Below are positions 2,370-60,529 of a stretch of DNA of 64,000 bases, piece by piece. The notes beneath the pieces were generated by a model. It was not told where the DNA came from. It did no database searches and was given only the letters and a program-made list of their open reading frames with translations. The position numbers and the translations under genes were made by a program. Source of the stretch: an uncultured Verrucomicrobiae bacterium. GTDB taxonomy: Bacteria > Chlamydiota > Chlamydiia > Chlamydiales > Rhabdochlamydiaceae. The DNA is taken from NCBI GenBank assembly GCA_963718565.1, contig OY970364.1, forward strand, positions 1,472,001 to 1,536,000. Reading direction: 5' to 3'. Within the stretch, counting starts at the first letter, position 1, and each line of letters starts with the position of its first letter.

Positions 2370-3980
2370 ATGGCGGGAAGCTCTTTTTATAAACAAAATA
2401 CGATGCCCGATCTCATTTCAGGAGAAGAGAATTTTCCTCTTCCGACGATGATCGGCCCTTACAAAATTGAAAGCCTCTTTAGTAAAGGAGGCATGAGTCT
2501 GCTTTATCTCGGATTGGACCCGGAAACAAAAAAGGCCCTCATCATCAAAGTCCTCTCTCCTTCCCATGTCACGCATCCCGAAGCCGTAGAGAGGTTTTTA
2601 AAAGAAGCCAAAGTCATCGCGCTCAGCAATCATCCCAATATCGTCAAGCTCTATGGGCAAGGAGAATGGGAAAAAGGCCTTTATATCGCAATGGAGCTGA
2701 TCCATGGCATTTCGCTCAAGCAGTTTATTATGCAGCAATCGCTCTCGATGCGACGCGCCTTGGAAATTATCTTACAGGTCGCCTTTGCTCTTCTGCATTT
2801 GCACTCCCATGGAGTCATTCATCGCGATTTGAAACCCGAGAATATTTTGATCACAGAAGAAGGAGAAGTTAAAGTCATTGATTTTGGCATTGCCCAATTG
2901 CACGAGGAAAAAGAAAACCAGACTTCATCCTCGGGTAAATTTTTGGGCACCCCCAATTACATGAGCCCCGAACAAAAAGAAGATCCGTTTTCTGTCACTT
3001 TCGCAACGGACATTTATTCTCTCGGCGTAACTCTTTATGAGCTTGTCTTGGGGAAATTAAGTTACGGAATCATTCATTTGACAGCCCTCCCTAAAGGACT
3101 CAAAAAAATCGCCGCTAAAACCTTGGCGGTCTCTGTAAAGGAGCGTTATCAAACGATCTCCGAATTTATTCACGACATTTCTCAATATTTGCAATCTGGA
3201 GACCTTGAAAAGGAGCGCCCTGGGATAGACCAGGTCAAAGAATTGAATGAAAGGATCCAAAAGGCAAACCTCAGCCTTTCCCCGATCGCCCTTCCTACAT
3301 GGCCCCAAATCGATCTGGGGATCACGAAAGGTCGAGGCATGCAACAGCTCGGGCTTTATTACGATTTCTTCCGCCTTCCCAATAATACTTTTCTCATGTT
3401 TATCGCCACCACCAAGTCCGCTGCGATCGAGTCTGCCGTATCGATTGCTACCTTGCGTGGCATGATTCGGATGCACCTCCATGAATTTACACCTTCGAGC
3501 AGAGCCATTTTCAAGCCCCTAGCATTTACAGAAACATTGAACCGCATAGTCTGCGAAGACACATCTGGAGAAAAATTCGCCTTGAATGCTGTGCTATTAG
3601 ACCCCTTGCAAGACCGCGTCACATACATCTCCTGCGGATTCAATTCACTTGCGCACATTCCTCAAGGGCAAACCAAACCCCGGAAGCTCGCCTCAGAAAA
3701 TGACCTGCTTGGGACCTCTGTAACGACGGAATTTTCCGAAACCACCGATAACTGGAATGCAGGTGATATTCTTATCCTGCATTCTCTGGCACTGCCTCCT
3801 GAGGCCAAGCCCCAAGAAAAGGAGCAATGGGACCAGGCGATGAGTGAGGCGGCCACTGAAAATCTCCTTTTGTCCGCTCAAAGGCAGTCTGAGGCCATAT
3901 TTAAAAAAATTTCTACCACTTCCGCTTTTGCATTGATCCTCTATCCTAAAGCCTTGATCTCGATTCAAAGAATTATTTAA
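2370..3980 (+). CDS. pkn5: Pkn5-like Ser/Thr protein kinase with degenerate C-terminal SpoIIE/PP2C-like domain
   Basis: KGGMS, HRDLKPEN, DFG, GTPNYMSPEQ, DIYSLG motifs; follows cdsQ. Confidence 0.85.
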   Translation: MAGSSFYKQNTMPDLISGEENFPLPTMIGPYKIESLFSKGGMSLLYLGLDPETKKALIIKVLSPSHVTHPEAVERFLKEAKVIALSNHPNIVKLYGQGEWEKGLYIAMELIHGISLKQFIMQQSLSMRRALEIILQVAFALLHLHSHGVIHRDLKPENILITEEGEVKVIDFGIAQLHEEKENQTSSSGKFLGTPNYMSPEQKEDPFSVTFATDIYSLGVTLYELVLGKLSYGIIHLTALPKGLKKIAAKTLAVSVKERYQTISEFIHDISQYLQSGDLEKERPGIDQVKELNERIQKANLSLSPIALPTWPQIDLGITKGRGMQQLGLYYDFFRLPNNTFLMFIATTKSAAIESAVSIATLRGMIRMHLHEFTPSSRAIFKPLAFTETLNRIVCEDTSGEKFALNAVLLDPLQDRVTYISCGFNSLAHIPQGQTKPRKLASENDLLGTSVTTEFSETTDNWNAGDILILHSLALPPEAKPQEKEQWDQAMSEAATENLLLSAQRQSEAIFKKISTTSAFALILYPKALISIQRII

Positions 3981-4028
3981 TCAAAAAAAATAATATATAG
4001 TATTAAAAATTCTATTAAATATTAGAAA

Positions 4029-4057
4029 TTGAATCTATTTTTTATTTATAATATAAT
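4029..4057 (+). promoter_or_regulatory. sigma66/sigma70-type promoter of F-box/WD40 gene 1
   Basis: TTGAAT-N17-TATAAT; same module before paralogues (6631, 8326, 27300 minus). Confidence 0.7.
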
Positions 4058-4136
4058 TGGTTTTTAATAATTTGCTTTTTTATTAAAAGTAATCATTAGA
4101 AAATAAATAAAAAACTTAAATTAAGGATATAAATTT

Positions 4137-5663
4137 ATGACCTCATTTATCTCTGATTCAAACAAGCATGTCGTTGAGATACCACAGGACAACACCCTAG
4201 CCTTAAGTAGGGTATACAGAGATCCGCTGTCCATCAATGAATTCCCTGAAGAGATTCTCTCTCTCTTTTTTGAAAACTTATCTCTACAGGGAATTAGAGC
4301 ATGTCAATTGACCTGTAAAGAATGGAACTGGATTCTAAATAATAGTGATAATGATGGTTTGTGGGGGAGGTTACTTAAAAATCATTTTCCAAATGTAGAT
4401 GTAGATAGAGGCGTTGTTGAAAATTTTCATAGCGCTTACAAGACCCTCCACAATTTTTATTCAAACCTTATAAAAGGAGTGTGCGCTCCGTACGTCCTTC
4501 AAGGGCATGAAAACACGATTTCCTGCCTTGCCGTTGATGTTAATGTTGATAGCAGGCAACTCTTTTCAGCCTCTTTTGATCGCACCATCAAGGCCTGGGA
4601 TGCACAAACAGGGAAATGCTCCAAAACTCTTCAAGGACATACAGGCCTGGTTTACCGCCTTGTTGCTGATGCGAAGAGCAGGCAACTCTTTTCAGTCTCT
4701 TTGGATGGCACCTTCAAGGTCTGGGATACACGAACAGGAAAATGCCGCGGAACTCTTCAAGGGCATGAAGGCATTGTTTACTGCTTTACCGCTAATGTGA
4801 AGAGAGGGCTACTCTTTTCAGGCTCTTCGGATCGCACCATCAAGGTCTGGGATATACAAACGGGTAAATGCCTCAGAACTCTTCAAGAAGACCGTACAGA
4901 CACGGGTTACTGCCTTGTCGTTGAGGACAACAGCGGGCTACTCTTTTCCGCAAACTCTTCGGGTTACACCATCACGGTCTGGGACATACAAACGGGTAAA
5001 TACCTCAGAACTCTTCAAGGACATGAGTACACGGTTACTAGCCTTGCCGTTATTGAAGGGCAACTTTTTTCAGGCTCTTCGGATCGCACCATCAAGGTCT
5101 GGGACATACAAACGGGTAAATACCTCAGAACTCTTCACGGGCATACAAGCGCGGTTACCTGCCTTGCCGTTGATGACAAGCGCAGGGTACTCTTTTCAGT
5201 CTCTTTGGATCGCACCATCAAGGCCTGGGATACACGAACGGGTAAATGCATCGGAACTCTTCAAAGGCATGAAAACACGGGTTACTGTTACAGCCTTGCC
5301 GCTATTGACGGGAAACTTTTTTTGTTGAATATGAATGCTGATAACAACATGAATATGAATGCTGATAACAACATCGAGCTCTGGGACCTTACAGCAAGCC
5401 AGGACACGATTTTGCAACAGATGGCGAACATGCTAAAAACGGGAACAACACCGCAAATCCAGCGCGCTCTTAACCTATTTTCAAGAATGCCAAACAAGGT
5501 AAAAAATGCAATCTACGGAGAGTTGTATGATATTTGTAAGCCTTTCGCTAATGATTATTGGGGATGCGGAGAGCATGCTTTTCTCAACCAATATGGGCAA
5601 AGTTCTGAGCCTCATCAACAAGCCAAAGCGATTGAAAGTTATTTAAATAAACAAAAACCTTAA
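4137..5663 (+). CDS. F-box/WD40-repeat protein 1 (putative T3SS effector)
   Basis: F-box FPEEILSLFFENL..IRACQLTCKEW; about 7 GH..WD repeats; conserved C-terminal domain. Confidence 0.9.
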   Translation: MTSFISDSNKHVVEIPQDNTLALSRVYRDPLSINEFPEEILSLFFENLSLQGIRACQLTCKEWNWILNNSDNDGLWGRLLKNHFPNVDVDRGVVENFHSAYKTLHNFYSNLIKGVCAPYVLQGHENTISCLAVDVNVDSRQLFSASFDRTIKAWDAQTGKCSKTLQGHTGLVYRLVADAKSRQLFSVSLDGTFKVWDTRTGKCRGTLQGHEGIVYCFTANVKRGLLFSGSSDRTIKVWDIQTGKCLRTLQEDRTDTGYCLVVEDNSGLLFSANSSGYTITVWDIQTGKYLRTLQGHEYTVTSLAVIEGQLFSGSSDRTIKVWDIQTGKYLRTLHGHTSAVTCLAVDDKRRVLFSVSLDRTIKAWDTRTGKCIGTLQRHENTGYCYSLAAIDGKLFLLNMNADNNMNMNADNNIELWDLTASQDTILQQMANMLKTGTTPQIQRALNLFSRMPNKVKNAIYGELYDICKPFANDYWGCGEHAFLNQYGQSSEPHQQAKAIESYLNKQKP

Positions 5664-5759
5664 TGGTTAGGATCATTTTTTTGTTTATAATATAATTGGT
5701 TTTGAAAAATTTGCTTTTTATTAAAAGTAATCATTAGAAAAATAAATAAAAAAACTTAA

Positions 5760-6234
5760 CCCAAGTTCGCGGATTTCCCAGAGGAGCTATGCAAATTCGT
5801 CACTACATCTTGAATTAAACGAGTGTTTTATGACCTCTGAGAATTGAAGACGATAATCCCAGCGCCCTGTAAATCTCTATTTGCTCGCCTTCTGCCTTTG
5901 TAGTGCTGCGGTGGTAGAGCACCCTGCCTTCTGTTGTCTTGGCCCGCACAGTTACTCGGACTCGAGTAATCATGATATTACGTATTGTCTGCCACAAATA
6001 GTTTATCCCTTTTCGAACGGTCTGTCTTGAGGGTTTTCCTTATATACATGCCCTCAGATCTTACCGATGGATCGAATTTATTTGAACATGAAATAATTAT
6101 TTTACAAATTTTCAGTCACTACAAATTCGCAAAAACAGCAAAGCACTAAAAATAAGGGACTTACGAAAGCAAAGGTTGATTTTAATGTTGTTGATTATGA
6201 GGGACTTAGGTCAGCTCTCTCGGGCGAACTTGGG
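5760..6234 (-). mobile_element. Internally deleted IS1634-family derivative (475 bp, both ends kept)
   Basis: TIR CCCAAGTTCGC/GCGAACTTGGG; 5760-6017 matches 25202-25459 and 6017-6234 matches 27051-27268. Confidence 0.93.
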
Positions 6235-6615
6235 CTAGAACATCAGCAGCTTGGGTTTGGGAAAGAGCTTTTTGCTTTAGCTTAGAAAAGACTTCAGCCC
6301 TATCTAATTCTTTGGTACTCATAGTGATAATCCTCTCCATTTAATTACCTCCTTAGTAATGAATACCTTACTACCAGGAGAGGACATTCAGGAGGGGACA
6401 TTTCTATTTAACGCAAAGCGGACATTTCAAAAAAACGCTTATACCCAAACAACTTGAAAAATTGGTTTTTGACTGCGTCGGCAGCCATTGCCTTTGAGCC
6501 CGCGTCCATCGCACAACTTATTCAAGTTGTGCTGCTTCCGCGCCGGCTTCGCCTGCCTCAAATGCAGGGCGCCTTCTTGCCAAATTCCCAGTTTTTCAAG
6601 TTGTTTGGGTATACA
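6235..6615 (-). mobile_element. Left-end remnant of an IS481/IS1202(ISNCY)-like element, with a MITE inserted in its terminus
   Basis: Minus-strand MERIITMSTKELDRAEVFSKLKQKALSQTQAADVL (HTH-like transposase start); three AATGTCC subterminal repeats; TGTAAGCG end restored after removing the MITE. Confidence 0.6.
6442..6611. mobile_element. 170-bp palindromic MITE family A (TA target duplication)
   Basis: TIR TACCCAAACAACTTGAAAAA/TTTTTCAAGTTGTTTGGGTA flanked by TA; core homologous to 58820-58989. Confidence 0.85.
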
Positions 6616-6630
6616 ATTAAATATTAGAGA

Positions 6631-6659
6631 TTGAATCTATTTTTTATTTATAATATAAT
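6631..6659 (+). promoter_or_regulatory. sigma66-type promoter of F-box/WD40 gene 2
   Basis: TTGAAT-N17-TATAAT identical to 4029-4057. Confidence 0.7.
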
Positions 6660-6728
6660 TAGTTTTTAAGAATTTGCTTTTTTATTAGAAAATAAATAAA
6701 AAAAAACCTTAAATGAAGGATGTAAATT

Positions 6729-8024
6729 ATGAGCTTATCTATCTCTGATTCAAACAACGTCGGTAAGATACCGCACAATGCTCTAGCCTTAGATGAGTCG
6801 CCCTTTGATTACCTCCCTCAAGAGATAATCCGTTTCATTTTTGAACTATCACTCCTATCAGGAATTAGAGCAGGTAAATTGACCTGTAAAGAATGGAACC
6901 GGATTCTAGATGATAATAATTATGATTTATGGAAGAGGTTATTTAAAAATCATTTTCCAAGTGTAGATGTAGATAATGATTTATGGAAGTGGTTATTTAA
7001 AAATCATTTTCCAAGTGTAGATGTAGATATAAACACTATTGATATTGAAAGTTTTCATAGTGTTTACAAAACCTTCTATAATCTTTATTCAAATCTTGCA
7101 AAAGAAGCGTATGCTCCACAGACTCTTCAAGGGCATAGAGCCGTGATTTACCGCCTTGCCGTTAATCCTAACAGCAGCCAACTCTTTTCAGCCTCTTCTG
7201 ATGGCACCATCAAGGTCTGGGATACACGAACAGGTGAATGCCTCAGAACTCTTCAAAGGCAGGAAGGCAGCGGCGACTGCCTTGCCTTTGATGTTAATGG
7301 AGAACAATTCTTTTCAGCCCCTTCTGATGACACCATCAAGGCCTGGAATACACAAACGGGTAAATGCCTCGGAATTCTTGAAGGGCTTGAAGGCCGGGTC
7401 TACAGCCTTGCCGTTGGTGATAGCGGGAAAGTCTTTTTAAGCTCTTCTGATCATACCATCAAGGCCTGGGATACACAAACGGGTAAATGTCTCAGAACTC
7501 TTCAGGAGGGGCATGAAGGCGGGGTTCCCCGCATTTGGAATCCCCGCCTTGCCCTTAATGCTAAGGGTGAGAAGCTCTTTTCAAGCTCTTGTAATTGCAC
7601 CATCGAGGTCTGGGATACACGAACGGATAAACGCCTCGGAACTCTTGAAGGGCATAAAAAGATGGTTTACTGCCTTGCCTTTGATGCTAATAGGAAGCAA
7701 CTCTTTTCAGCCTCTTTTGATGGCATCATCAAGGTCTGGGATACAGAAACGGGTGAATGCTTCAGAACTCTTCAAGGGCATGGAGGCGTGGTTTACCATC
7801 TTGTCGTTGATCCTAGCAGCGGGCTACTCCTTTCATGCTCTTGGGATGACACTATCAAGGTCTGGGACATACAAACGGGTAAATGCCTCGGAACTCTTCA
7901 AGGGCGTGTGGGAGATTATTCCTGCGTTGCCTTTATTGGCGGGAAACTTTTTTTTGCAGGTATTGGTGGTAACAACATCAATGTCTGGGACTTTACAGCA
8001 GCAAGCCAGGACACAATTTTGTAA
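6729..8024 (+). CDS. F-box/WD40-repeat protein 2, lacking the family C-terminal domain
   Basis: F-box LPQEIIRFIF..LTCKEW; about 7 WD40 repeats; stops at ASQDTIL just before the duplicated pkn5 fragment. Confidence 0.88.
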   Translation: MSLSISDSNNVGKIPHNALALDESPFDYLPQEIIRFIFELSLLSGIRAGKLTCKEWNRILDDNNYDLWKRLFKNHFPSVDVDNDLWKWLFKNHFPSVDVDINTIDIESFHSVYKTFYNLYSNLAKEAYAPQTLQGHRAVIYRLAVNPNSSQLFSASSDGTIKVWDTRTGECLRTLQRQEGSGDCLAFDVNGEQFFSAPSDDTIKAWNTQTGKCLGILEGLEGRVYSLAVGDSGKVFLSSSDHTIKAWDTQTGKCLRTLQEGHEGGVPRIWNPRLALNAKGEKLFSSSCNCTIEVWDTRTDKRLGTLEGHKKMVYCLAFDANRKQLFSASFDGIIKVWDTETGECFRTLQGHGGVVYHLVVDPSSGLLLSCSWDDTIKVWDIQTGKCLGTLQGRVGDYSCVAFIGGKLFFAGIGGNNINVWDFTAASQDTIL

Positions 8025-8030
8025 GAGACA

Positions 8031-8277
8031 GATAACTGGAATCCAGGTGATATTCTTAATCCTGCATTCTGCTGGCACTGCCTCCTAAGGCCAAGCCCTA
8101 AGAAAAGGAGCAATGGGATCAGGCGATGAGTGAGGCGGCCACTGAAAATCTCCTTTTGTCCGCTCAAAGACAATCTTCTGAGCCCATATTTAAAAAAAAA
8201 TTTCTACTATACTGCGCCCGCTTTTGCATTAATCCCCTATGCTAAAGCCTTGATTTCGATTCAAAGAATTATTTAAT
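8031..8277 (+). pseudogene. Duplicated, frameshifted 3' fragment of pkn5
   Basis: Near-identical to 3747-3980, with indels; homology continues through the intergenic region to the ATG at 8434. Confidence 0.92.
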
Positions 8278-8325
8278 CAAAAAAATATAATATATAGCAT
8301 TAAAAATTCTATTAAATATTAGATA

Positions 8326-8354
8326 TTGAATACATTTTTTATTTATAATATAAT
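8326..8354 (+). promoter_or_regulatory. sigma66-type promoter of F-box/WD40 gene 3
   Basis: TTGAAT-N17-TATAAT. Confidence 0.7.
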
Positions 8355-8433
8355 TGATATTGAAAAATTTGTTTTTTATTAAAAACAATCATTATAAAAA
8401 ATAAATAAAAAACTTAAATAAGGATGTAAATTT

Positions 8434-9888
8434 ATGATCCCATCTATCCCTAATTCGAACCCCGTCGTTCTAACCTTAGATAAGGTGCCACCCTTCGAGG
8501 CGGTCCCTCAAGAGATAGTCTCTTTCATTCTTGAAAACTCTTTCATTCCTGAAAAATCACTTCTGCCAGGAGTTGTAGCATGTCGATTGACCTGTAAACA
8601 ATGGAACCAGATTCTAAATAATAATGGCCTGTGGGAGAGCTTACTTAAAAATCATTTTCCAAGTGTAGATGTAGATACAAAAACTGTTAAAAATTTTCAT
8701 AATGCTTACCAGGCTTTCCATAATCTTTATTTAAATCTCCCAAAAGAAGTGTATGCTTTGGGCATCCTTCAAGGGCATACAGATACGGTTTACTGCACTG
8801 CCGTCACTGGCAACCTACTCTCTTCAGGCTGTCGTGATGGTACCATCAAGGTCTGGGATACACGAACGGGTGAATGCCTCAGAACTCTTCAAGGGCATAC
8901 AGACGTGGTTTGCCACATTGCCGTCACTGGCGACCTACTCTTTTCAGGCTCTCGTGATGGTACCATCAAGATCTGGAACATACAAACGGGTAAATGGCTC
9001 GGAGATCTTCAAGGGCATACAAACCCGGTTGACTGCCTTGCCTTTGAGGCTAATAGCGAGCAACTCTTTTCAAGCTCTCTTGATCACACCATCAAGGTCT
9101 GGAATACACGAACGGGTGAATGCCTCAGAACTCTTCAAAGGCTTGGATTCGAGGTTTCCTCCATTGCTGTTAATAGCAAGCGATTCTTTTCATCAGGCTC
9201 TTATAATAACGCCATCAATGATGACGCCATCAATGTCTGGGATACACGAACAGGGGAATGCCTCAAAGCTTTTCAAGGGCATACAAGCAAGGTTTACTGC
9301 CTTACCATTACTGGCAACCTACTCTTTTCAGGCTCTCGTGATGGCGCCATCAAGGCATGGGATACACGAACAGGGGAATGCCTCAGAACTTTTCAAGGGC
9401 ATACAAGCACGGTTTACTGCCTTGCCATTACTGGCAAGCTACTCTTTTCAACCTCTTTGGATCGCACCATCAAGGTCTGGGATACACGAACGGGTGAATG
9501 CCTCGGAACTCTTCAAGAGCATATAGGCAGGATTTCCTGCCTTGCCGTTGATGGCGGGAAACTTTTTTTGACTGCTGATAGTAACAACATCGAGAGGCGA
9601 GACTTGACAGCAAGCCAGGACACGATTTTGGAGGAGATTGCGGGCATATTAAAAACAGGGACGACAGCGCAAGCCATCCAGTGCGCTCTTAACCGATTTT
9701 CGAGGATGTCAAACGGGGTAAAAAATGCAATCTACGGAGAGTTATATAAGATTTGCAAGCCTTTCGCTAATGATTATTGGGGATGCGGAGAGCATGCTTT
9801 TCTCAACCAATATGGGCAAAGTTCTACGCCTGATCAACAAGCCCAAGCGATTGAGAATTATTTGAAGGATCGCTCTTTGAATAAATAA
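8434..9888 (+). CDS. F-box/WD40-repeat protein 3
   Basis: F-box VPQEIVSFIL..CRLTCKQW; about 7 WD40 repeats; family C-terminal domain. Confidence 0.9.
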   Translation: MIPSIPNSNPVVLTLDKVPPFEAVPQEIVSFILENSFIPEKSLLPGVVACRLTCKQWNQILNNNGLWESLLKNHFPSVDVDTKTVKNFHNAYQAFHNLYLNLPKEVYALGILQGHTDTVYCTAVTGNLLSSGCRDGTIKVWDTRTGECLRTLQGHTDVVCHIAVTGDLLFSGSRDGTIKIWNIQTGKWLGDLQGHTNPVDCLAFEANSEQLFSSSLDHTIKVWNTRTGECLRTLQRLGFEVSSIAVNSKRFFSSGSYNNAINDDAINVWDTRTGECLKAFQGHTSKVYCLTITGNLLFSGSRDGAIKAWDTRTGECLRTFQGHTSTVYCLAITGKLLFSTSLDRTIKVWDTRTGECLGTLQEHIGRISCLAVDGGKLFLTADSNNIERRDLTASQDTILEEIAGILKTGTTAQAIQCALNRFSRMSNGVKNAIYGELYKICKPFANDYWGCGEHAFLNQYGQSSTPDQQAQAIENYLKDRSLNK

Positions 9889-9959
9889 AAAACTTAAACC
9901 AAGAACGTAAATTTATGACTTCATTTATCCCTGGTTCAGACAGCGTTGTCGTTGAGATA

Positions 9960-11446
9960 GGTAGTGTAACATTGTTTCTGTAAATTCAATTTTTCAAGAA
10001 AGTGTTTTGATAATTGAAAAAAAAGTTTGAGATCACATTCTCTTAAGTTTAGACAAACAAACAAAAGGAGAGGTTATGATCTCAAACAGCACATATGCCC
10101 CTGTAATCAACGCATTAGTGGAAGAACTCGGACAACAAGGCTTACACGGCCTCAGCGAACTCTTGAGCAGGCTCTTCAATGAATTAATGAAGACCGAACG
10201 AGAGCAGGTTCTTCAAGCTGGTCCATATGAGCGGACAGAGGCTAGAAAAGGTTATGCTAATGGTTTTAAAGATAAAACGGTACAGACTCGTTTTGGAAAA
10301 TTAGAACTCCAGGTTCCACAAACTCGAGAGATTGCATTCTACCCACAGTGCTTAGAGAAGGGAGAGCGATCAGAAAGGGCATTAAAATTGGCAATTGCAG
10401 AAATGTATGTTCAGGGTGTTTCAACGCGGCGAATAGCTCCAATTGCAAAAGAGCTGTGCGGCTTTGATTTGAGTTCAACCCAAGTTTCTCGGGTTGCAAT
10501 GATTCTCGATGAGGAGCTTGAAAAATTCCGCAGGAGAAATTTAGGTCACATCGTTTATCTTTATCTCGATGCCGATTATCAAAAGGTGAGACACGATGGA
10601 CACGTCAGAGACATTGCAGTACTAAAAGCTGTTGGAGTGAACAAAGATGGATTTCGAGAAGTGCTTGGCATTTCATGCAGTTTATCTGAGGCCGAAGTGC
10701 ATTGGAGGACATTCCTGGAAGACTTACTCTCTCGAGGATTAAGAGGAGTAGAAATGGTGATTAGCGATGATCACTCTGGGCTAAAAGCTGCACTAAGGGC
10801 AGTGCTTCCATCGGTTCCTTGGCAGCGCTGTCTTTTTCATCTTGCTCAAAACGCTCAAAGCTATGTCCCAAACACGGCAATGCGAGGAGAAATTGCACAA
10901 GCGGTACGAGATGTTTATCAAGCCTTGAATCAACAAGAGGCTGAAAAACGAGTTAAGGAAACAGTGCAAAGATATGAAAAAAGAGCGCCCAAATTTTGCA
11001 ATTGGTTTGAAATCAATGCAATTGAGGCAATGACATTTTATCATCGGCCAAGAAGGCACTGGAAACAGATAAGGACTGTTAATATTGTTGAAAGGCTTAA
11101 TGGAGAGATTAAGCGGCGAACAAGAGTAGCAAGATTATTTCCCAATGAAGCGTCTTGTGAAAGATTGGTCACTGCCGTGGTATCTGAGATACACGATGAA
11201 TGGATAAGCGGAAAGAGGTATTTGACGTTAGAATAAAATATTGAGGAAAACAACGCTAACACCGATGGAACACTTTTTGTTTAGGGGTGAATTATCTGGC
11301 ATAAAAAAGTGTCAGATTCGAAAAATTTTTCCTCAAAAGCAAAGTAAAAAGCCGAAGCGTCTCTGACGCGAGAGGCCGTTTTTATAGTAAGAAATTGACC
11401 TAAGTGAAGAAGATTTCAGATTTTACAGAAAAATTGTTGCTTGATC
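9960..11446 (+). mobile_element. IS256-family insertion sequence (1487 bp)
   Basis: Imperfect 25-bp TIR ending TTTCTGTAAA; 9-bp TSD GTTGAGATA at 9951-9959 and 11447-11455. Confidence 0.93.
10076..11236 (+). CDS. IS256-family transposase
   Basis: GYANG..TRFG.LELQVP, MYVQGVSTR, LYLDA, VISDDHSGL, WQRCLFH, RTVNIVERLNGEIKRR. Confidence 0.95.
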   Translation: MISNSTYAPVINALVEELGQQGLHGLSELLSRLFNELMKTEREQVLQAGPYERTEARKGYANGFKDKTVQTRFGKLELQVPQTREIAFYPQCLEKGERSERALKLAIAEMYVQGVSTRRIAPIAKELCGFDLSSTQVSRVAMILDEELEKFRRRNLGHIVYLYLDADYQKVRHDGHVRDIAVLKAVGVNKDGFREVLGISCSLSEAEVHWRTFLEDLLSRGLRGVEMVISDDHSGLKAALRAVLPSVPWQRCLFHLAQNAQSYVPNTAMRGEIAQAVRDVYQALNQQEAEKRVKETVQRYEKRAPKFCNWFEINAIEAMTFYHRPRRHWKQIRTVNIVERLNGEIKRRTRVARLFPNEASCERLVTAVVSEIHDEWISGKRYLTLE

Positions 11447-13065
11447 GTTGAGATACCGCAATCGCAGGACAACACTCTACTAGCCTTAAGTGGGGGTATA
11501 CAACTCTCCAACCTCAAATGTGCCGCCCTTCGATGCGCTCCCTCAAGAGATAATCTCTCTCATTCTTAAAAAATTACCTCTGCTAGAAATTGTAGCATGT
11601 CGATTGACCTGTAAACAATGGAACCAGATTCTAAATAATAATGGCCTGTGGGAGAGCTTACTTAAAAATCATTTTCCAAGTGTAGATGTAGATACAAAAA
11701 CTGTTAAAAATTTTCATAGCGCTTACCAGACCTTCCATAATCTTTATTTAAATCTTACAAAAGAAGTGTATGCTTCGCAGATCCTTCAAGGGCATGAAGG
11801 CGGGGTTTTCTGCCTTGCCGTTCATGTTAATGGAGGACTACTCTCTTCAGGCTCTTTGAATGGTATCATCAAGGTCTGGGATACAACAGGTGAATGCCTC
11901 AACACTCTTCAAGGGCATACAAGCGCGGTTCACTGCCTTGCCGTTGATGTTAATAGAGGACTACTCTTTTCAGGCTCTTTTGATGGCACCATCAAGATCT
12001 GGAACATACAAACGGGTGAATGCCTCGGAACTCTTGGGCATGGAAACGCGGTTCACTGCCTTACCGTTGATGTTGATAGCGGGAAACTCTTTTCAGCCTC
12101 TTTGGATGGCACCATCAAGGTCTGGAACATACAAACGGGTGAATTCAAAACTCTTCAAGAGCATGGAAACGCAGTTTACTGCCTTGCCGTTGATGTTAAT
12201 AGCGGGAAACTCTTTTCAGCCTCTTTGGATGGCACCATCAAGGTCTGGGACATACAAACGGGCAAATGCCTCAAAACCTTTCAAGAGCATCAAGAAGGCC
12301 CGGTTCACTGTCTTATCGTTGATGTTAAAAAAGGGCTACTCTTTTCAGGCTCTTTTGATGGCACCATCAAGGTCTGGGACATACAAACGGGTAAATGCCT
12401 CAGAATTCTTGGACATACAGGCACGGTTTACCGCCTTGTCGTTGATGCTAATAGCGGGCTACTCTTTTCAGCCTCTTTGGGCCGCACCATCAAGGTCTGG
12501 GACATACAAACGGGCGAATGCCTCGGAACTCTTCAAGGGCATGAAGGCGATCATTGCTGCATTGCCGTTATCGGCGGGCGACTTTTTGTAGGTACTGGTA
12601 ACAACATCGAGAAGCGAGACTTGACAGCAAGCCAGGACACGATTTTGGAGGAGATTGCGGGCATATTAAAAACAGGGACGACAGCGCAAGCCATCCAGTG
12701 CGCTCTTAACCGATTTTCGAGGATGTCAAACGGGGTAAAAAATGCAATCTACGGAGAGTTATATAAGATTTGCAAGCCTTTCGCTAATGATTATTGGGGA
12801 TGCGGAGAGCATGCTTTTCTCAACCAATATGGGCAAAGTTCTACGCCTGATCAACAAGCCCAAGCGATTGAGAATTATTTGAAGGATCGCTCTTTGAATA
12901 AATAAAAACCTTAATGGTTAGGATCATTTTTCTATTTACAATATAGCCGATTTTAAAAAATTTGCTTTTAAAATAAATTATTTTAATAGTTGAATAAAAA
13001 CTTTAAATTAAGTTATGACCCCATCTATAAATTACTCAGAACGACCTTAAATAAAGGTGTAAATT

Positions 13066-14604
13066 ATGGCCCTATCTATAAATTGTTCAAAAAGTCATTC
13101 AAACAATTTTTTCATTATGCCGGAATGGATTGGAGAGTTGTGGCGAAGCAGCTACTGCATAGCCAACGCAGCCAAAAACCAACTTTTCAACCCATCCCGA
13201 TGTACTATACCGCAGGGCAATAATCCAGCTTTAAAATTATACGTAGATGTACTCTTGCAAATTTTTAAGAACTTATCTGGACAGGACATTAGAACATGTG
13301 AGTTGGTCTGTAAATACTGGAACCGGATGCTAAATGAGGATCGTCTCTGGCAAGGATTACTTGAAAATCACTTTCCAGGTATGAGTCTACATCCAAGCAG
13401 CACTAAAAATTTTCGGAACATTTACCACACTCTTCACACTTTTTATTTAAAACTTACAAAAGGAGTGTATGCCTCGCACACCCTTCACGGACATGGAAAT
13501 ATGGTTTCGTCCCTTGTTTTTTTTGGTGGAGTACTCTTTTCAAGCTCTTGGGATCACACCGTCAGGGCCTGGGACATAAAAACCGGTAAGTGTATAGCGA
13601 TTCTTCAAGGGCATGGGAGCTCAGTTTCCTGCCTTGCCGTTTCTGATGATGGGAAACTTCTCTTTTCAGGCTCTTGCGATGGCACAATCAAATTCTGGGA
13701 GATAAAAAAGGTCAAGGATATAAAAACAGGTGAATCTATCAAAACATATGAATGCATCGCCACTCTTCAAGGGCATAGAGGCGCGATTTCCTGTCTTGAC
13801 TTTGCCGATGGGAAGCTCTTTTCAGGCGGCTGTGGAGATAACACCATCAAAGTCTGGGATGTAAAAACCGGTAAGTGCATAGAGGTTCTTCAAGGGCAGG
13901 AAAGTGCAATTTCCTCCCTTAAGCTTGTTGACGGGAAACTCTTTTCGGGTTCCCGGAATGGCACAATCAAAATCTGGGATATAAAAACAGGTAAATCCCT
14001 AGCGACTTTTCAGGCGCATACACAGCAGATTTTTCATCTTGCCTTTGCTGACGGTAAACTCTTTTCAAGCTCTTACAATGATGGAAATGAAATCAAGGTT
14101 TGGAATATAGAAACCGGTAAGTGTATAGCGACTCTTCGAGGGCATAGAAACTCCATTTCCGGCCTTATCGTTACTAACGGGAAACTCCTTTCGGGCTCTT
14201 TAGATGACACAATCAAGATCTGGGATATTCAAACAAATGAATGCATAGCGACCCTTCGAGGGTATGGGAGCATGGTTTCGTGTCTTACCTTTGCTAACGG
14301 GAAACTCTTTTTGGGCTCTTTATATAGCCCAATCAAGATTTTGGACTTTGCAGCAGAGTACACAACGATTTTTTATCAAATTGTTGGGCTGTTAAAAACA
14401 GAGGAATCGCAAACCACTCAACAAGCCCTCCAGCGATTTTCAAACATGCCGCCGGCAGCAAAAAGTACAATCTACAAAAAGCTGTATGAGGGATGTAAAG
14501 AAGATACTTCTCACAATCCACTTTGGCAAAGCGCTTCGCCCGCTCGACAAGCTCAAGCGATCATGGATTATTTGAAGGATCAGCCTCTTAAGCTCTCTTC
14601 GTGA
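13066..14604 (+). CDS. F-box/WD40-repeat protein 5 (more divergent)
   Basis: F-box DVLLQIFKNL..CELVCKYW; about 7 WD40 repeats; divergent family C-terminal domain. Confidence 0.88.
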   Translation: MALSINCSKSHSNNFFIMPEWIGELWRSSYCIANAAKNQLFNPSRCTIPQGNNPALKLYVDVLLQIFKNLSGQDIRTCELVCKYWNRMLNEDRLWQGLLENHFPGMSLHPSSTKNFRNIYHTLHTFYLKLTKGVYASHTLHGHGNMVSSLVFFGGVLFSSSWDHTVRAWDIKTGKCIAILQGHGSSVSCLAVSDDGKLLFSGSCDGTIKFWEIKKVKDIKTGESIKTYECIATLQGHRGAISCLDFADGKLFSGGCGDNTIKVWDVKTGKCIEVLQGQESAISSLKLVDGKLFSGSRNGTIKIWDIKTGKSLATFQAHTQQIFHLAFADGKLFSSSYNDGNEIKVWNIETGKCIATLRGHRNSISGLIVTNGKLLSGSLDDTIKIWDIQTNECIATLRGYGSMVSCLTFANGKLFLGSLYSPIKILDFAAEYTTIFYQIVGLLKTEESQTTQQALQRFSNMPPAAKSTIYKKLYEGCKEDTSHNPLWQSASPARQAQAIMDYLKDQPLKLSS

Positions 14605-15731: not shown

Positions 15732-18700
15732 ATGAAAGAATTTCGGAAGCGCTACTGGTATGAAGTTGCCCTATGTGCCTCCTTTTTTTCTCTGATTTAT
15801 TCTCCGATTGCCTACACTGCGGATATTGAGGAGAAACTGATCGCGGCGGATGTTCAGTCAAACATCGATGTCGATAAAGATACCTACACAGTCAATTTCA
15901 ATAATATTTCCATCATCGAATTCATCCGTTTTGCCAGTAAAATCACCAATTTAAACTTTGTTTTCGATGAGGGAGACCTTCAATTCACCGTGACCGTGGT
16001 CTCTGAAGAGGCAATTTCAGCAAAAAATGTGATGTCTGCGCTCTCTCAAGTGCTCCGGATGCACGATCTGATCCTGCTTGAACAAGATGGCAATGTGTTG
16101 ATCACTAAAAGCACAAAAGTCAATCAAATCCCGCCGATTGTCTCCGGTGATCTTCCAGAGTCGAAAGCAAGCAATGCTGCATTGATTACCCGAGTTTTTC
16201 GCCTTAAAAATGCCAATGTGGGCACGGTTGCAGGTATTATCCGTCCCATGTGTTCTGACACTGCTTTAATCGAAGTTTCTGCGGAGACAAGGCAACTAAT
16301 TGTCACAGACGTGACGACAAACGTCGAACAAATTGCCTCATTGCTCACAAGTCTGGATGCCCCGCATACACCGCTTGATGTCGAAACCTATGTGGTCAAG
16401 AATATCCCTCCGCAAGACCTGATCGCAATGACCCAGCAGATTCTGAACCCATTTACTGAGGGCAATCCCCTCCTTTTAGTTCCTCAAAATGACACGAATT
16501 CTATCTTTGTCGTTTCGACTCCCTATTTGATCGAACGCGCGATGACCGTGTTGGAAGATTTGGACATTCCGGCCAAGTCGGTCGTCATCAGCAGACAATC
16601 GATGACGGGCAAAAACATCTTTTTATATCAAACAGTCCATCGCTCCGTCGAGGAATTGATGCGCGAACTGGCGCAGGTCAATCAACAATTGAAAAGCATG
16701 GGCGGGCCTCAGACTTCCCTTCAAATTGCCATTGGCGGTGTACAGCCTATTCAGAATACCAATTCCTTGATGTTCGTTGCGGATTCTGACACAACAGCTA
16801 CCCTCAAAGGGATTTTAGCCTCTCTCGACACCCCTGCCACAGGGAAGACTTCCTTCTACATTTACAAAATTCAAAAAGCGCAACCCTCGCAAATTGAAGA
16901 ATCGCTTAAACTCATGGTCGATCGTCTCGAATCGGCTCCGCGACCCGATGAAGACTTGATCGATGCCATCAATAGCATGCGATGGATCAAAGAGACGAAT
17001 TCGCTCATCTTTACGGGATCAGACCCCGCTCTGAAAAGGTTGCAAGAAATCGTTCCTACCTTTGATGTCAGCCCTTATCAAGCCCTCTCTGGAGCTCAGG
17101 CACAAGCAAAATCGACATTTTTGATTTACAATCCTCAATACCGTTCTGGCGAGGAACTGAGTTCTGAGCTCGAAGATATCGGTAAAAATTTAAAAGATTC
17201 TGAGCTGGCCGATCCTTCTTTTTTGCAAACATTGGATTCCATGAAATGGGTCTCCACTACCAACTCTTTAGTCTTTACCGGGGATCCGCAGTCGATTGAA
17301 AGGGTTAATGTCATTTTGAAATCATTAGATACACCCACCCTTCCCGTCAGTAAAGCTGCACAGGTCTTCATTTATAAGCCGCAATACGTCTCTTCTGACC
17401 AGATCCAAAATGCATTGGATAGTCTTGTCCCTTCTCTACAAGCCACCAATTCCCTTTCTGATCAAAACCTGATTCACGCTATTCAATCGTTGCAGTGGAA
17501 TAGCGAGACGCAATCGTTCATGGTGACCTCTGATGGGACGACCATTGAACGTTTGAAAGGCCTGCTAGCTTCCATTGATACTGGACAAGCGCCTGCAGCT
17601 GCGCTAGCAAAAGGCTTTTTTCTCTACAAGTTGCAATATGCTCATTGCGATACCGTTCTCGAACAGTTAAAAAATATCGCTTCAAAACTCCCTGCAAACA
17701 CGTTACAAAACCAAAATCTCATCCATGCGATCCATAGGACCGAATGCATCAAAGAAAACAACTCTCTTTTGATCACAGGACCATCTGCAGCGATCGAACA
17801 GGAAAAAACACTGATCGCAGAATTCGACTCTTCAACAGGCGCTCCTGGGGGAGCACACTCCTTCTTCATCTACAAACCTAAATATCTTCCTCCAGAAGAA
17901 ATCGAAGCGGCATTAAATGATTTAGCAGAGGATTTACAGGCTTCCGGGCTCAATGACCCCGCCCTTTTTCAAACCTTGAAGACAATGCGCTATGTCCCTC
18001 AGACCAATTCCCTTCTATTCACTGGCAATCAGGAAGGTCTCGATAAAGTTCAAAATCTGATTAACGGAATCGACACAAGTACAGCATTAGGAGCAATCCA
18101 GCGCATTGGCAACCTCACCTTCTTTTTGTATAAGATCCAATACGCCTCTGCCGATAAATTGATTTCTTCTCTAAAAGCTTTTGCACAAGAGCTCACACAA
18201 ACCAACGTCCAAGACAAGCAGCTGGCAGATTCGATTAACAGTGTGAAATGGATTAAGGAGACCAATGCGCTTCTTTTCACAGGCAACAACGACACACTAG
18301 AGCGCATTGAGCAGCTTGTTAAAAAATTCGATATCCCCTCTCTTGGAGGACCAGCTCCTGTAGAGCGCGCTGCGCAGACCTTTGTGATCTACAACCCCAA
18401 GTACTTAAGCGGCGATGAACTCATTTCGATTCTTTGTGACTTCATGCAGAACTTGGTCACTTCGGGCGTTTCCGATCCTGGCTTATTTGATGCGATCAAC
18501 AATCTGAAATGGATTTCCAAAACATCCTCCTTGCTTATTTCCGGAGATAAGCAATCCGTTGAAAAAGTCCAACAATTACTCGTAAAGTTCGATCTTCCAG
18601 GAAAAGAAACGATCACCCCTTCTATTGAATCGATCGATAACACCAGCTTTTTAGTGTATAAATTACAATACCATCCTGGCGACGACATTCAAACAGCTTT

Positions 18701-23578: not shown

Positions 23579-25123
23579 TTATTGTTTACCGCTTGGCTTT
23601 CCATGCTGATCATTCAAATAATTTCTAATTGCCTGGGCTTTTTGAACAGGCGTAGAACTTTGCTCATTTTGGTTGTGAAAAGTATCTTCTCCCCATTCCA
23701 AATAGTCCTTGGTGAAATGGTCCTTGGCAAAAAGTTTGCAAATGTCATACAACTTCACGAGGAAAGGGTTGCAAATCTCATACAACTTCTCGTAGATTGC
23801 ATTTTTTGCTGGTTCTGGCATCTTTAAAAATAGCTCAAAAGCTTGCTGAGTAGCTTGTGGTGTCCCTGTTTCTAACATGTCCGCGATCTCTTTAAAAATC
23901 TCGCCCTGGCTTGCTGTAAAGTCCAAGACTGTGATCGTGCCATCATGAGAGCCCGAATAGAATTTTCCGCCAGGAGCAACGGCAACACAGTTAACCCAGT
24001 CTTTATTCCTTTGAAAGGCAGTGATGCATTTACGCGTTTGTATATCCCAGACCTTGATGGTGCCATTTTCAGAGCACGAATAAAGTTTTCCGCCAACAAC
24101 GATAAGCCAATATTCCTCCCCTCTCTCTTGAGGGGTGGCGATGTATTCACCCGTTTTTCTATTCCAGATCTTGATGCTACGATCCCAAGAGCCCGAAAAG
24201 AGGTTTTCGCCAGCAACGACAAGGCAGGGAACAATATCTTCATGCCCTTGAAGGCTATTGATGCATTCACCCGTTTTTCTATTCCAGATCTTAATTGTGT
24301 AATCATGCAAGATCGTGCCTGTGCAATCACAAGAGCTCGAATAGATTTTATTGCCAGCAGCGGCAAGGCTGGAAATCTGGCCTTTATGCCCTTGAAGAGT
24401 TCTGATGCATTCACCCGTTTTTATATTCCAGATCTTGATGGTGCGATCATCAGAGCCCGAACAGAGTCCTTCATCAGCACCAACAGCGGCAAGATCGGAA
24501 ACCATGTCTTTATGCCCTTGAAGAGTTCTGATGCATTCACCCGTTTTTATATTCCAGATCTTGATGGTGCGATCAGCAGAGCCCGAACAGAGGTTTCCGC
24601 CAGCAATGGTAAAGCAGAAAACTGGGCCTTCATGCCCTTGAAGAGTTCTGATGTATTCATCCGTTTTTATATTCCAGATCTTGATTGTGTGATCATAATA
24701 AGAGCTCGAATAAAGTTCTCCGCCAGCAACGGTAAGGCAGCGAACCATGCCCTTATCATGTCCTGGAATAATGCGCGAAGTGCAAACTCCTCTTGGAAGA
24801 TTAAAATTAATATTTGAATAAAGAGCCTGGTAAGCTTTCCGAAAATCTTTAATGGCATCTGGGTTTGTATTTGGAAAATGATCTTCAAGTAATGCGCGAC
24901 AAAGACGCTGACTGTGTAGCGCCAGATTCCATTTTTTACAGACTGACTCACATGCTCTAATTCCCTGTACAGGTAAGCCTTTAAAAATTAAAAAGAAGAT
25001 ATCTAAGGGCAGCGACAAGGCCTGAGCGTTATCCTGGGGCACCAAGGCTAAAGTGTCGTCCTGCGGTATTACAACGGCAGGGTAGTTGGAATGACTTTGT
25101 GAATCATTGATAGGTAGGGTCAT
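23579..25123 (-). CDS. F-box/WD40-repeat protein 6 (outside the array)
   Basis: F-box LPLDIFFLIFKGL..CESVCKKW; about 7 WD40 repeats; family C-terminal domain. Confidence 0.9.
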   Translation of the reverse strand: MTLPINDSQSHSNYPAVVIPQDDTLALVPQDNAQALSLPLDIFFLIFKGLPVQGIRACESVCKKWNLALHSQRLCRALLEDHFPNTNPDAIKDFRKAYQALYSNINFNLPRGVCTSRIIPGHDKGMVRCLTVAGGELYSSSYYDHTIKIWNIKTDEYIRTLQGHEGPVFCFTIAGGNLCSGSADRTIKIWNIKTGECIRTLQGHKDMVSDLAAVGADEGLCSGSDDRTIKIWNIKTGECIRTLQGHKGQISSLAAAGNKIYSSSCDCTGTILHDYTIKIWNRKTGECINSLQGHEDIVPCLVVAGENLFSGSWDRSIKIWNRKTGEYIATPQERGEEYWLIVVGGKLYSCSENGTIKVWDIQTRKCITAFQRNKDWVNCVAVAPGGKFYSGSHDGTITVLDFTASQGEIFKEIADMLETGTPQATQQAFELFLKMPEPAKNAIYEKLYEICNPFLVKLYDICKLFAKDHFTKDYLEWGEDTFHNQNEQSSTPVQKAQAIRNYLNDQHGKPSGKQ

Positions 25124-58093: not shown

Positions 58094-58714
58094 TTAGACA
58101 TTGGCGACCGCATTTTGAAGGTTGGCCAAAAGCTGTTTGTTCTTATGGCTTCTTGAACCATATAGCCTTGCAGAAAAGACGGTAATGATTTCCAAAACGT
58201 CTTTGGCAAGTTCCTCCTCGAAGGAAGGTTCGTCTCCCTGGTTGATAATCACCACTTCGACATTTTTGACTGCGCAAAGAGAGAAGACAAGCTCTGCTCC
58301 GAATCGCAAAAGGCGGTCTTTATGCGTGAGAACCAGGCGGCCAATCTCTCCGTTCATAATTTGCTCAAGCAGTTGTTTTAGCCCACGTTTATTATAGTTC
58401 ATCCCGGAACCGAGGTCTTTGGTTACCGAAAACACCCATCCTTTTGCAGAACAGTAAATTTCTAACATATGGACTTGTCGTTGTAAATCTTCTTTTTGAT
58501 CATGACTCGAAACTCTTGCGTAGGCAACAGTTAGACGATCAGAGGTTTTATCTCCGCAATTAAATGGCTGTAACTGAGTGAGACTATAGCGGCGTTGGCC
58601 GCCCTGTGTGCGATGACAGGGAACGATTTTCTTTTGTCTTTCCCATCGGCGGAGTGTTTGTGGAGAAACTCCCAAACATTTTGCTGCTTCCTGAATGCTT
58701 AAAAACTTGTTCAT
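58094..58714 (-). CDS. tnpA: IS607-family transposase TnpA (MerR-HTH serine recombinase); tnpB missing
   Basis: GVSPQTLRRWE, YARVSS, DLGSGMN, DRLLRFG, FSARLYG. Confidence 0.93.
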   Translation of the reverse strand: MNKFLSIQEAAKCLGVSPQTLRRWERQKKIVPCHRTQGGQRRYSLTQLQPFNCGDKTSDRLTVAYARVSSHDQKEDLQRQVHMLEIYCSAKGWVFSVTKDLGSGMNYNKRGLKQLLEQIMNGEIGRLVLTHKDRLLRFGAELVFSLCAVKNVEVVIINQGDEPSFEEELAKDVLEIITVFSARLYGSRSHKNKQLLANLQNAVANV

Positions 58715-58767
58715 TCTGATAATATATAATCAGGTTTGAATAAGTTCAATGGATTCTGTTACAAGCC

Positions 58768-59080
58768 CTAGAAAAATCAATTCGTGCATCTTCAGAAAAA
58801 ATTTGATCTAAGCTGTCTATACCGAAATGAACTCAAGATTTGGGAATTTGGCAAGGAGGCGCCCTGAATTTGAGCCAGCGTATGCGACGCCGAAGCAGCA
58901 CAACTTGAATAAGTTGTGCGATGCAGGTGGGCTCAAATACAGTGGCTGCCCGACGTAGCCAAAAACCAAATCTTGAGTTCATTTCGGTATATATCTTTTT
59001 TATCAATCGCGGCCGCATATTTAGTCAGAAGATCCATAATTTCAAGGCGATCAGAAACTTCTTGTAAGGTCATTACCATG
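58768..59080 (-). pseudogene. SnoaL/NTF2-like gene disrupted by MITE A and truncated by IS607
   Basis: MTLQEVSDRLEIMDLLTKYAAAIDKKDI|DSLDQIFSEDARIDFSR reads through after removing the MITE plus one TA. Confidence 0.7.
58820..58989. mobile_element. 170-bp palindromic MITE family A
   Basis: Perfect 24-bp TIR TACCGAAATGAACTCAAGATTTGG; TA duplication. Confidence 0.88.
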
Positions 59081-59188
59081 GCTCTTGCACCTTTCCTATC
59101 TGAACAAGATGAGCTAAACATTAAGGTATACTGTACTACCGTATTGAATGAAGTTGCAACAAGAGTTTTGATAGGTCTGGGCGCAGTA

Positions 59189-60312: not shown

Positions 60313-60475
60313 GCTCCTATTCCGATAGTCTGTAGCGTTAATTGAAAAACGCTATTCGCCATTATGAAACACGCCGGTATACGGGTTGTGTTTTTACACA
60401 AACCATTAAATTTTAAGACAAAAAGCATCAACAAATCGACAGATGACGTTTTGTTGATCAAATTTGACAGATTCG

Positions 60476-60520
60476 AAATCAATCAACAAAACGTCATCTG
60501 TCGATTTGTTGATTGATTTT
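60476..60520 (-). terminator. Hairpin downstream of the glgB-like gene, with an inverted partial copy at 60427-60458
   Basis: AAATCAATCAACAAA-N14-TTTGTTGATTGATTT. Confidence 0.5.
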
Positions 60521-60529
60521 CGGATATTT

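Follow-up and report, generated by a model that had tools for sequence, protein, structure and literature searches.

The closest precedent for the genes considered here comes from fungi, where, in the part of the report available, NACHT-WD genes combine concerted evolution with positive selection on pairs of positions flanking a conserved V and a conserved D (Paoletti et al., 2007; PMC1805685). In prokaryotes, highly repetitive (HR) WD40 proteins with low synonymous divergence (dS) and diverse hotspot residues are known, which the accessible portion of the study describing them interprets as products of recent repeat duplication (Hu et al., 2017; PMC5587647). The F-box and BTB families of chlamydiae carry leucine-rich repeats (LRR) or tetratricopeptide repeats (TPR), and the available sections of their description report birth-and-death evolution, ratios of nonsynonymous to synonymous divergence (dN/dS) of 0.29-0.63 and no convincing recombination (Domman et al., 2014; PMC4209131). 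Effectors that target ubiquitin were reviewed in 2026 (PMC13720258); the review presents F-box effectors with ankyrin or LRR partners and does not contain the word WD40. The subject of this report is a cluster of six genes for F-box/WD40 proteins, termed G1-G6, in a stretch of 64,000 nucleotides (the window; positions 1,472,001-1,536,000) of the genome of an uncultured Verrucomicrobiae bacterium, a single contig of 2,284,058 bp with 43.6% G+C. An initial annotation, made from the letters of the DNA, had pointed to a repeat pattern like that of the fungal HNWD genes and had proposed an undescribed diversification system. It is shown below that the internal WD40 blades of most of these genes are homogenized and that six top-face codons per blade carry excess amino-acid change, a combination that is probably explained by concerted evolution together with diversifying selection.

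Homogenization of the blades

Five of the genes (G1-G5) stand in tandem on the + strand at window positions 4137-14604 and the sixth, G6, lies on the - strand at 23579-25123. The family that had been placed at 4490..12620 is therefore real but wider in extent, as G5 (13066-14604) and G6 belong to it too. The architecture common to G1-G6 is an F-box, a helical linker and seven WD40 blades of 39-53 residues, followed in all except G2 by a conserved helical tail of ~90 aa. The 57-nt DNA scaffold quoted in the initial annotation (51 specified bases) has 11 matches in the window at ≤3 mismatches, all of them on the + strand in G1-G4, against a chance expectation of 0.00 in 100 shuffles, and a 14-nt core has 24 matches at ≤1 mismatch against 0.03 expected. 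Synonymous sites are kept, as had been claimed: when two of the 28 blades of G1-G4 have a residue in common, they share the codon in 0.8-1.0 of cases at most scaffold columns, where genome codon usage predicts 0.18-0.57 (for example, 1.00 against 0.19 at Leu column 22 and 0.99 against 0.18 at Ser column 54). The scaffold had also been called near-invariant, and it is conserved but not invariant, the p-distance between blade cores being 0.08-0.54 (median 0.30); over whole genes, blastn identity is 72-83%.

Blades 2-6 are homogenized within and between neighboring genes. The influence of blade position was analyzed on blades 2-6 of G1-G4 (20 of the 28) over 40 aligned core codons with insert columns dropped, blades 1 and 7 being left out because the beginning of the unit is missing from blade 1 and blade 7 has diverged. 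Between genes, dS is 0.251 for blades at the same position (30 pairs) and 0.250 for blades at other positions (120 pairs), while within one gene it is 0.201 (40 pairs). The nearest neighbor of a blade occupies the same position in five of the 20 cases (permutation mean 3.2, P 0.22) and comes from the same gene in nine (P 0.02). When the 28 blades are taken together, position gives a strong signal (12/28, P<0.0002), which comes from blades 1 and 7, whose clades in the repeat tree have a support of 0.97, the blade-1 clade taking in the old gene G5. In this tree, which the initial annotation had suggested as a check, internal blades do not group by position, and blades 1 and 7 do. Since blades 1 and 7 are positionally orthologous, G5 included, the seven-blade gene predates the likeness of its internal blades. 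The internal blades of G6 differ by a proportion of synonymous differences (pS) of 0.23, yet its N-terminal region has a dS of 0.55-0.77 from every other copy, and the blades of G5, with a within-gene pS of 0.44, have not been recently homogenized. Genome-wide, within-gene blade pS spans 0.13-0.65, with 0.13-0.24 in 8 of the 23 family open reading frames (ORFs) that have at least two blades and 0.30-0.65 in the other 15.

Of 18 further genomes of the genus, 15 contain the family, one of them with as many as 77 matches, and the genome analyzed here has ~25 family ORFs. The arrays used for comparison were one from genome G015 and three from genome G003 (L090, L091 and L092), from which 28 of 31 family ORFs were retained as having exactly seven detected blades; blade number is thus seven in 6/6 window genes and 28/31 related ORFs, a comparison among genes of three genomes. 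In every array (five arrays in three genomes, the window included) within-gene, same-blade and other-blade pS agree, the values being ~0.5 for G015, 0.15 for two of the G003 arrays and 0.32-0.36 for the remaining one. Within arrays, pS is 0.52 for the old G015 array and 0.15-0.34 for the other four, and between arrays (where pair lists above 600 were subsampled) it is 0.43-0.69, with the exception of the related G003 arrays L090 and L091 at 0.20. Array-specific, position-independent homogeneity of this kind, here in three genomes, is a prediction of concerted evolution.

The genes G1-G4 are moreover mosaic. There are 89 quartet-informative sites among them, split 43/21/25 over the three groupings, and these are clustered along the genes (adjacent-same 47 vs 31.7, P 0.0003), also within the WD region alone (P 0.0005). 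Between G3 and G4 there are 0 differences in 93 C-terminal codons and an N-terminal dS of 0.08, and their WD regions have dS 0.205, dN 0.281 and unlike blade lengths. The 3′ tract of G3 (9582..9890, + strand) is 100% identical to G4 12599-12907 over ~309 nt and has sharp borders, and its 5′ tract (8545..8790, + strand) is ~90-95% identical to G4 11562-11807, the WD middle being different; the two genes also differ upstream of the 8545-8790 tract and past the stop codon. The identical ~309-nt 3′ end is a tract of gene conversion or recombination.

Excess amino-acid change at top-face codons

Six columns are hypervariable in all five arrays, namely three directly behind GH, one behind the conserved V and one on either side of the conserved D, and column entropies correlate in 10/10 array pairs (rho 0.40-0.70). 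Every peptide that had been listed earlier after GH and around S-x-D-x occurs in the translations. On the structural model of G4 described below, the six hot columns map to the D-A loop, the beginning of strand A and the B-C turn, which we take to be the top face in the canonical WD40 topology. The hot codons read NNC, NNG, NNC, NNT/G and NNC, and their diversity at codon positions 1/2/3 is 0.56/0.58/0.25 in the window and 0.60/0.45/0.19 in L090.

Selection was assessed by counts, nonsynonymous differences in independent closest blade pairs being compared with the number expected at the pooled synonymous rate. In the window the proportion of nonsynonymous differences (pN) reaches 0.414 at hot codons, compared with 0.172 for the pooled pS, a pN/pS of ~2.4, and the 10 independent pairs of G1-G4 have 57.5 nonsynonymous differences where 23.9 are expected if neutral (P 7e-9). 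Three of the related arrays also have more than expected: L090 with 51.4 against 20.7 (15 independent pairs, P 1e-8), L091 with 36.0 against 12.1 (10 pairs, P 2e-8) and L092 with 41.4 against 27.6 (7 pairs, P 0.01). In related arrays, purifying selection is evident at the other codons (pN/pS 0.25-0.5). Six top-face codons per blade carry excess amino-acid change, and the excess of nonsynonymous change anticipated by the initial annotation was found at the codons flanking the conserved V and D, both in the independent pairs and in per-column pN and pS. Its view of where variation concentrates stands in part: variation at top-face sites is present, but it is not limited to the top face, since the bottom-face A-B loop of the window array varies as well, with 2-codon indels.

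Domains, predicted fold and host dependence

The ubiquitin-ligase-like F-box that had been read from the translations is real, PF12937 (F-box-like) lying above its curated cut-off in 6/6 N-termini scanned alone (E 9e-6 to 2e-12), and PF00400 (WD40) matches all six proteins (E 1e-45 to 1e-59). An AlphaFold model of G4, built on 31 family members, has a mean predicted local distance difference test score (pLDDT) of 91.1 and a predicted template modeling score (pTM) of 0.88, and comprises F-box helices at 19-61, a linker helix at 75-91, seven blades built from 28 strands (95-377) and five helices at the C-terminus. Among solved structures, Fbw7-Skp1 is nearest (7t1z_B and 2ovr_B; E ~1e-27, 432-447 aligned columns), and the further best matches are FBXW11/beta-TrCP-Skp1 and Cdc4-Skp1, the alignments covering 400-447 columns with the F-box included. 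The C-terminal tail modeled alone has a pLDDT of 78; it matched no Pfam family, nothing below E 0.09 among Protein Data Bank (PDB) sequences, no structure at E ≤0.001 with Foldseek and nothing usable in the Atlas, and its best VIA Z of 6.8 is inside the noise range for helical bundles. Longer family members of ~680-800 aa are present in L091 (G003:C2:148000-158500), with many in G003 and G005, and these have ~200 residues beyond the tail that have no Pfam match.

The genome contains 23 F-box-like matches, 20 of which exceed the curated cut-off, and none occurs in 14 control genomes. The genome also has four strong matches and one fragment of nucleotide transporters (TLC), an FHIPEP export-gate gene, no match to flagellin and a RecA. 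The FHIPEP gene (genome positions 58661-60650, - strand) is matched as two separate segments, the second of which contains a TGA, and a frameshift or readthrough is possible. From the TLC transporters, the F-box matches and FHIPEP without flagellin, it is a reasonable inference that this bacterium leads a host-dependent life and has a non-flagellar type III system. It is probably a small-genome member of the Verrucomicrobiae living inside a host, and the intracellular habit and the ubiquitin-ligase specificity of the family are what we infer from sequence.

Search for diversification machinery and comparison with public contigs

No reverse transcriptase (RT) of a diversity-generating retroelement (DGR) was found, in agreement with what had been said of the window: the sole RVT_1 match in the genome (95% complete) is a frameshifted gene ~1 Mb away, at 489-491 kb, which by its motifs we take to be of the group-II-intron type. 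Near this frameshifted RT (489.4-490.9 kb) a ~260-bp repeat occurs (e.g., 487.1-487.4 kb), which has >30 copies in the genome at 88-98% identity. Sites with consensus A are among the least variable, 17/30 being invariant in L090 and 23/31 in L091, and the scaffold codons AAA, ATC and ACC are invariant. A DGR or another RT-based mechanism was rejected on the type of the RT and the lack of adenine bias, and the cluster contains no recombinase besides the transposases of insertion sequence (IS) elements.

Eleven public sequencing runs share part of the window, none sharing half of its words and no RNA run being among them. Four runs, belonging to two studies, have contigs that cover pieces of blades (4584-4735, 7358-7547, 8754-8928 and 12289-12460), and these pieces have 0 differences from the window; the depth is low, many parts are uncovered and no piece spans a gene, which is too thin to exclude rare variants. 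Contig joints at 8841/9466 (one skipping 624 nt and one going back 624 nt, with 39 nt common to both sides) and at 5737/8398 are best read as assembly collapse. ORFs in other frames of the arrays (4915-5328, 7513-8088, 8753-9526 and 11860-12591 on the + strand, and 23945-24817 antisense to G6) were rejected as genes and look like a by-product of repeating a stop-free unit, because these frames are not open in related arrays; the window arrays have 2-5 stops in frame +2 and 0 antisense in G6, and related arrays have 6-16 stops in frame +2.

Evaluation of the alternative explanations

The explanation that we regard as probable is concerted evolution plus diversifying selection on a genus-wide, tandemly expanded FBXW-like family of putative effectors that would hijack the Skp1-Cul1-F-box (SCF) ligase of the host. 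Gene conversion and unequal exchange of the RecA type would homogenize the blades, and exchange would be seeded in the ~57-nt scaffold, a segment from strand C up to GH that separates the variable codons of one blade from those of the next, so that the variable residues of each blade would travel as one cassette. The F-box/WD40 proteins would be secreted, probably by the non-flagellar type III system, and dock on host Skp1-Cul1, whereby host proteins bound to the top face would be directed to ubiquitination, and selection for new or escaping targets would drive the diversification. This is an evolutionary process acting on a gene family and not a programmed diversification device, and nothing indicates a new molecular mechanism. 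The undescribed system proposed by the initial annotation is accordingly not supported, as ordinary homologous recombination and selection are enough and RecA is present.

Several results weigh against this explanation. On the side of exchange, a four-gamete test resembling the pairwise homoplasy index (PHI), applied to 31 biallelic sites of the 20 internal blades, found incompatibility to be independent of distance (P 0.47; low power at 120 nt), and just two of the eight exact matches of at least 36 nt that link blades connect different genes, because of which exchange between genes may now be rare. On the side of selection, the old G015 array is without an excess at hot codons (37 independent pairs; 202.4 nonsynonymous differences against 196.6 expected if neutral; P 0.36). 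The hot columns were picked after inspection of the data, which inflates the values somewhat, although the columns do match known WD40/HNWD positions. With predefined structural classes (10 independent pairs), pN/pS is >1 in six of eight, so that the excess is not restricted to the top face, and it is ~1.0 for the whole B-C turn and 0.46 for strand C. The remaining 34 codons of the window array have a pN/pS of ~1.1 and the F-box region ~0.9-1.0; with the lost tail of G2 and the degenerate blades of G1, this points to relaxed constraint on top of selection in the window array, which may account for part of the variation.

It is unlikely that the repeats are simply young, that is, that one blade was recently amplified and the gene duplicated in a short burst with no later exchange, the surface residues having merely diverged. 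The internal blades of G1-G4 are indeed star-like and equidistant, the PHI-like test gave no significant result, there are few long identical tracts between genes, and low dS between repeats is interpreted in this way in the accessible text on HR WD40 proteins (Hu et al., 2017; PMC5587647). The positional orthology of blades 1 and 7 across genes, G5 included, nevertheless makes the seven-blade gene older than the likeness of its internal blades, and the blades of G6 (pS 0.23) are closer to each other than its N-terminus is to any paralog (dS 0.55-0.77). Position-independent likeness in all five arrays of three genomes, with between-array pS higher in four, would require repeated independent bursts, and neither the mosaic of G3 and G4 nor the clustered quartet signal is expected from duplication without exchange. 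A near-neutral drift of decaying, redundant paralogs in a symbiont with a small population, in which fixed structural residues would mimic a hypervariable surface, is an improbable source of the pattern. It would fit the pN/pS of ~1 in the F-box region and the non-hot blade codons of the window array, the truncation of G2, the degenerate blades and tandem duplications of G1 and the presence of IS elements and a MITE-like element inside the cluster. At the hot codons, however, pN is 2.4 times pS, a ratio that neutral drift cannot bring past 1; their third positions are conserved; the same six codons are hot in arrays where the other codons are at pN/pS 0.25-0.5; and 6/6 frames are open, 5/6 at full length.

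Targeted mutagenesis or cassette donation that would rewrite blades within the life of a population is very hard to credit. The NNC, NNG and NNT hot codons do recall the products of adenine mutagenesis, the truncated G2 could be a silent donor, and the scaffold provides homology on either side of each variable cassette; set against this are a sole RVT_1 match that is frameshifted and presumably group-II-intron-like, the low variability of consensus-A sites, the identity of the covered blade pieces across four runs and two studies, and the lack of a recombinase other than IS transposases in the cluster. A role of the proteins inside the bacterium, as scaffolds or in signaling, with an incidental F-box-like match, is likewise highly improbable. 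Many prokaryotic WD40 proteins are not effectors, as stated in the portion available of Hu et al. (2017; PMC5587647), but the modeled F-box, linker and propeller superpose as a whole on Fbw7, beta-TrCP and Cdc4 from Skp1 complexes, F-box-like matches occur 23 times here against 0/14 control genomes, and the genome carries markers of host dependence.

Comparison with described systems

The likeness to HNWD genes noted initially is borne out, in that blades are homogenized within and between neighboring genes and a nonsynonymous excess falls on the paired positions of Paoletti et al. (2007). As in the HNWD/NWD genes of Podospora anserina (het-d, het-e), the WD40 repeats are conserved as DNA within and between paralogs and are not grouped by position, and selected codon pairs surround a conserved top-face residue, here x-V-x and x-D-x with two further codons after GH. 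The HNWD/NWD genes of Podospora anserina are reportedly the subject of work by Chevanne et al. in 2010 (PMC2873952). In contrast to them, G1-G6 have no NACHT or HET domain: their N-termini match F-box families only, with short helices before the propeller, and the constant part is the F-box plus a new helical tail. The p-distance between repeats is 0.08-0.54, whereas identity reaches up to 100% in Podospora; blades number seven in 28/31 relatives, no repeat-number polymorphism being seen among the sequences compared, and repeat-induced point mutation (RIP) is absent. G1-G6 belong to a bacterium, which presumably uses them to attack or manipulate a host and not for self/non-self recognition. 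The family thus resembles HNWD in process, not in membership.

Like the HR WD40 proteins, the present family combines a low dS among the blades of a protein with conserved repeats whose hotspot residues (there predicted) are diverse, and it differs from them, as far as they are described in the sections available, in between-gene exchange, mosaic genes and a nonsynonymous excess. The terms F-box, gene conversion and Verrucomicrobia each occur 0 times in the text of Hu et al. (2017; PMC5587647). As in the F-box/BTB expansions of chlamydiae, specifically the Parachlamydiaceae, expansion is lineage-specific and in tandem; concerted evolution and a site-specific omega >1, by counting, set the present genes apart from what the accessible portion of Domman et al. 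(2014; PMC4209131) reports, and WD40 has 0 listed occurrences in that paper. Known bacterial F-box effectors (AnkB, LegU1 and LicA of Legionella, VirF of Agrobacterium and GALA/RipG of Ralstonia) are likewise F-box proteins of host-associated bacteria, but the known examples pair the F-box with ankyrin, LRR or TPR repeats. The order F-box, helical linker and WD40 propeller is that of the eukaryotic FBXW receptors (Fbw7, beta-TrCP/FBXW11 and Cdc4), at ~28% identity and with seven blades as in beta-TrCP, but the gene is bacterial and has a C-terminal helical domain without a recognized fold; the eukaryotic receptors, unlike G1-G4, have old, diverged blades and conserved degron pockets. In the literature searched, no bacterial F-box/WD40 arrays of this kind were found, which does not prove their absence, and supplements such as the HR WD40 list of Hu et al. 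(2017) may hold relatives. As far as found, bacterial F-box proteins are a new setting for an HNWD-type pattern.

The gene cluster and its surroundings

G1 (4137..5663, + strand) consists of F-box, seven blades (4476-5381) and C-terminal helical tail; its blade 4 is without GH, and its blade 7 contains a perfect 24-nt tandem duplication (5326-5374). G2 (6729..8024, + strand) has an F-box and seven blades (7098-7991) and no C-terminal tail, the stop following ASQDTIL right behind blade 7 and the DNA 3′ of the stop being unrelated to the family; its linker contains a 54-nt tandem duplication (6922-7029) at 98%. The tandem duplications show recent slippage or unequal exchange in both genes. G3 (8434..9888, + strand), with F-box, seven blades (8734-9603) and tail, is separated from G4 by a Mutator-family (IS256-like) transposase gene (10076..11236, + strand; PF00872, E 1.2e-108). 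G4 (11490..12905, + strand; F-box, seven blades at 11757-12620, tail) encodes the protein chosen for modeling, and G5 (13066..14604, + strand; blades 13450-14343) is an older paralog of the same architecture. The paralog G6 (23579..25123, - strand) has blades at 23921-24796 that cluster by gene, and a DDE transposase adjoins it. Reading frames are open in all six genes, all but the tailless G2 being of full length.

Ahead of G3, a fragment at 8218..8285 (+ strand) is a 94% copy of 3922-3989, the 3′ end of the kinase gene at 2370-3980, and this 68-nt copy is a trace of the segmental duplication that made the upstream region of G3. An AT-rich element at 4003..4090 (+ strand) is repeated at 5642-5729, 6605-6692, 8300-8387 and 12893-12980, before or after family genes; it belongs to the duplicated unit and is probably a promoter region. 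Between G1 and G2 lies the remnant of a multi-copy element (5755-6234). Contigs from three runs have extra DNA inserted in this remnant at 6017 (~1.6 kb in X1 and X5), so that the copy in the window is apparently an insertion element with a deletion. A miniature inverted-repeat transposable element (MITE)-like sequence of ~170 bp with terminal inverted repeats of ~26 nt occupies 6441-6612, and in one run its contig depth is 183 against ~2-25 in the flanks, which suggests that it is multi-copy or common to other organisms. The cluster is flanked by a gene for a Ser/Thr kinase fused to a PP2C/SpoIIE phosphatase domain (2370-3980) and a gene for a 1364-aa secretin with nine Secretin_N repeats (15732-19826).

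Implications

Repeats kept alike by recombination and bearing a few diversifying surface residues are best known from non-self receptors, both fungal and bacterial receptors resembling nucleotide-binding leucine-rich-repeat (NLR) proteins, while here they occur in putative weapons or tools of a symbiont. For the F-box families of chlamydiae, by contrast, birth and death under purifying selection has been reported. The family would supply dozens of natural propellers with seven blades whose differences are almost confined to 42 surface positions, a useful resource for mapping specificity, and the findings point to an unstudied lineage of Verrucomicrobiae with nucleotide transporters and many eukaryote-like proteins. 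It is a tentative suggestion, and one that may well prove wrong, that the arrays are a symbiont-side counterpart of an immune-receptor repertoire, that is, a standing, recombining library of degraders of host proteins in which six-residue cassettes move between paralogs via the 57-nt scaffold. If the proposed process is true, no effector family would previously have been shown to diversify in the HNWD/NLR manner, and the arrays would amount to a natural collection of propeller binders on one scaffold. Such a process would also offer a model, open to testing, of the way in which an intracellular bacterium probes for new targets in its host, and the bacterium could quickly retarget the SCF ligase of its host as hosts change or evolve.

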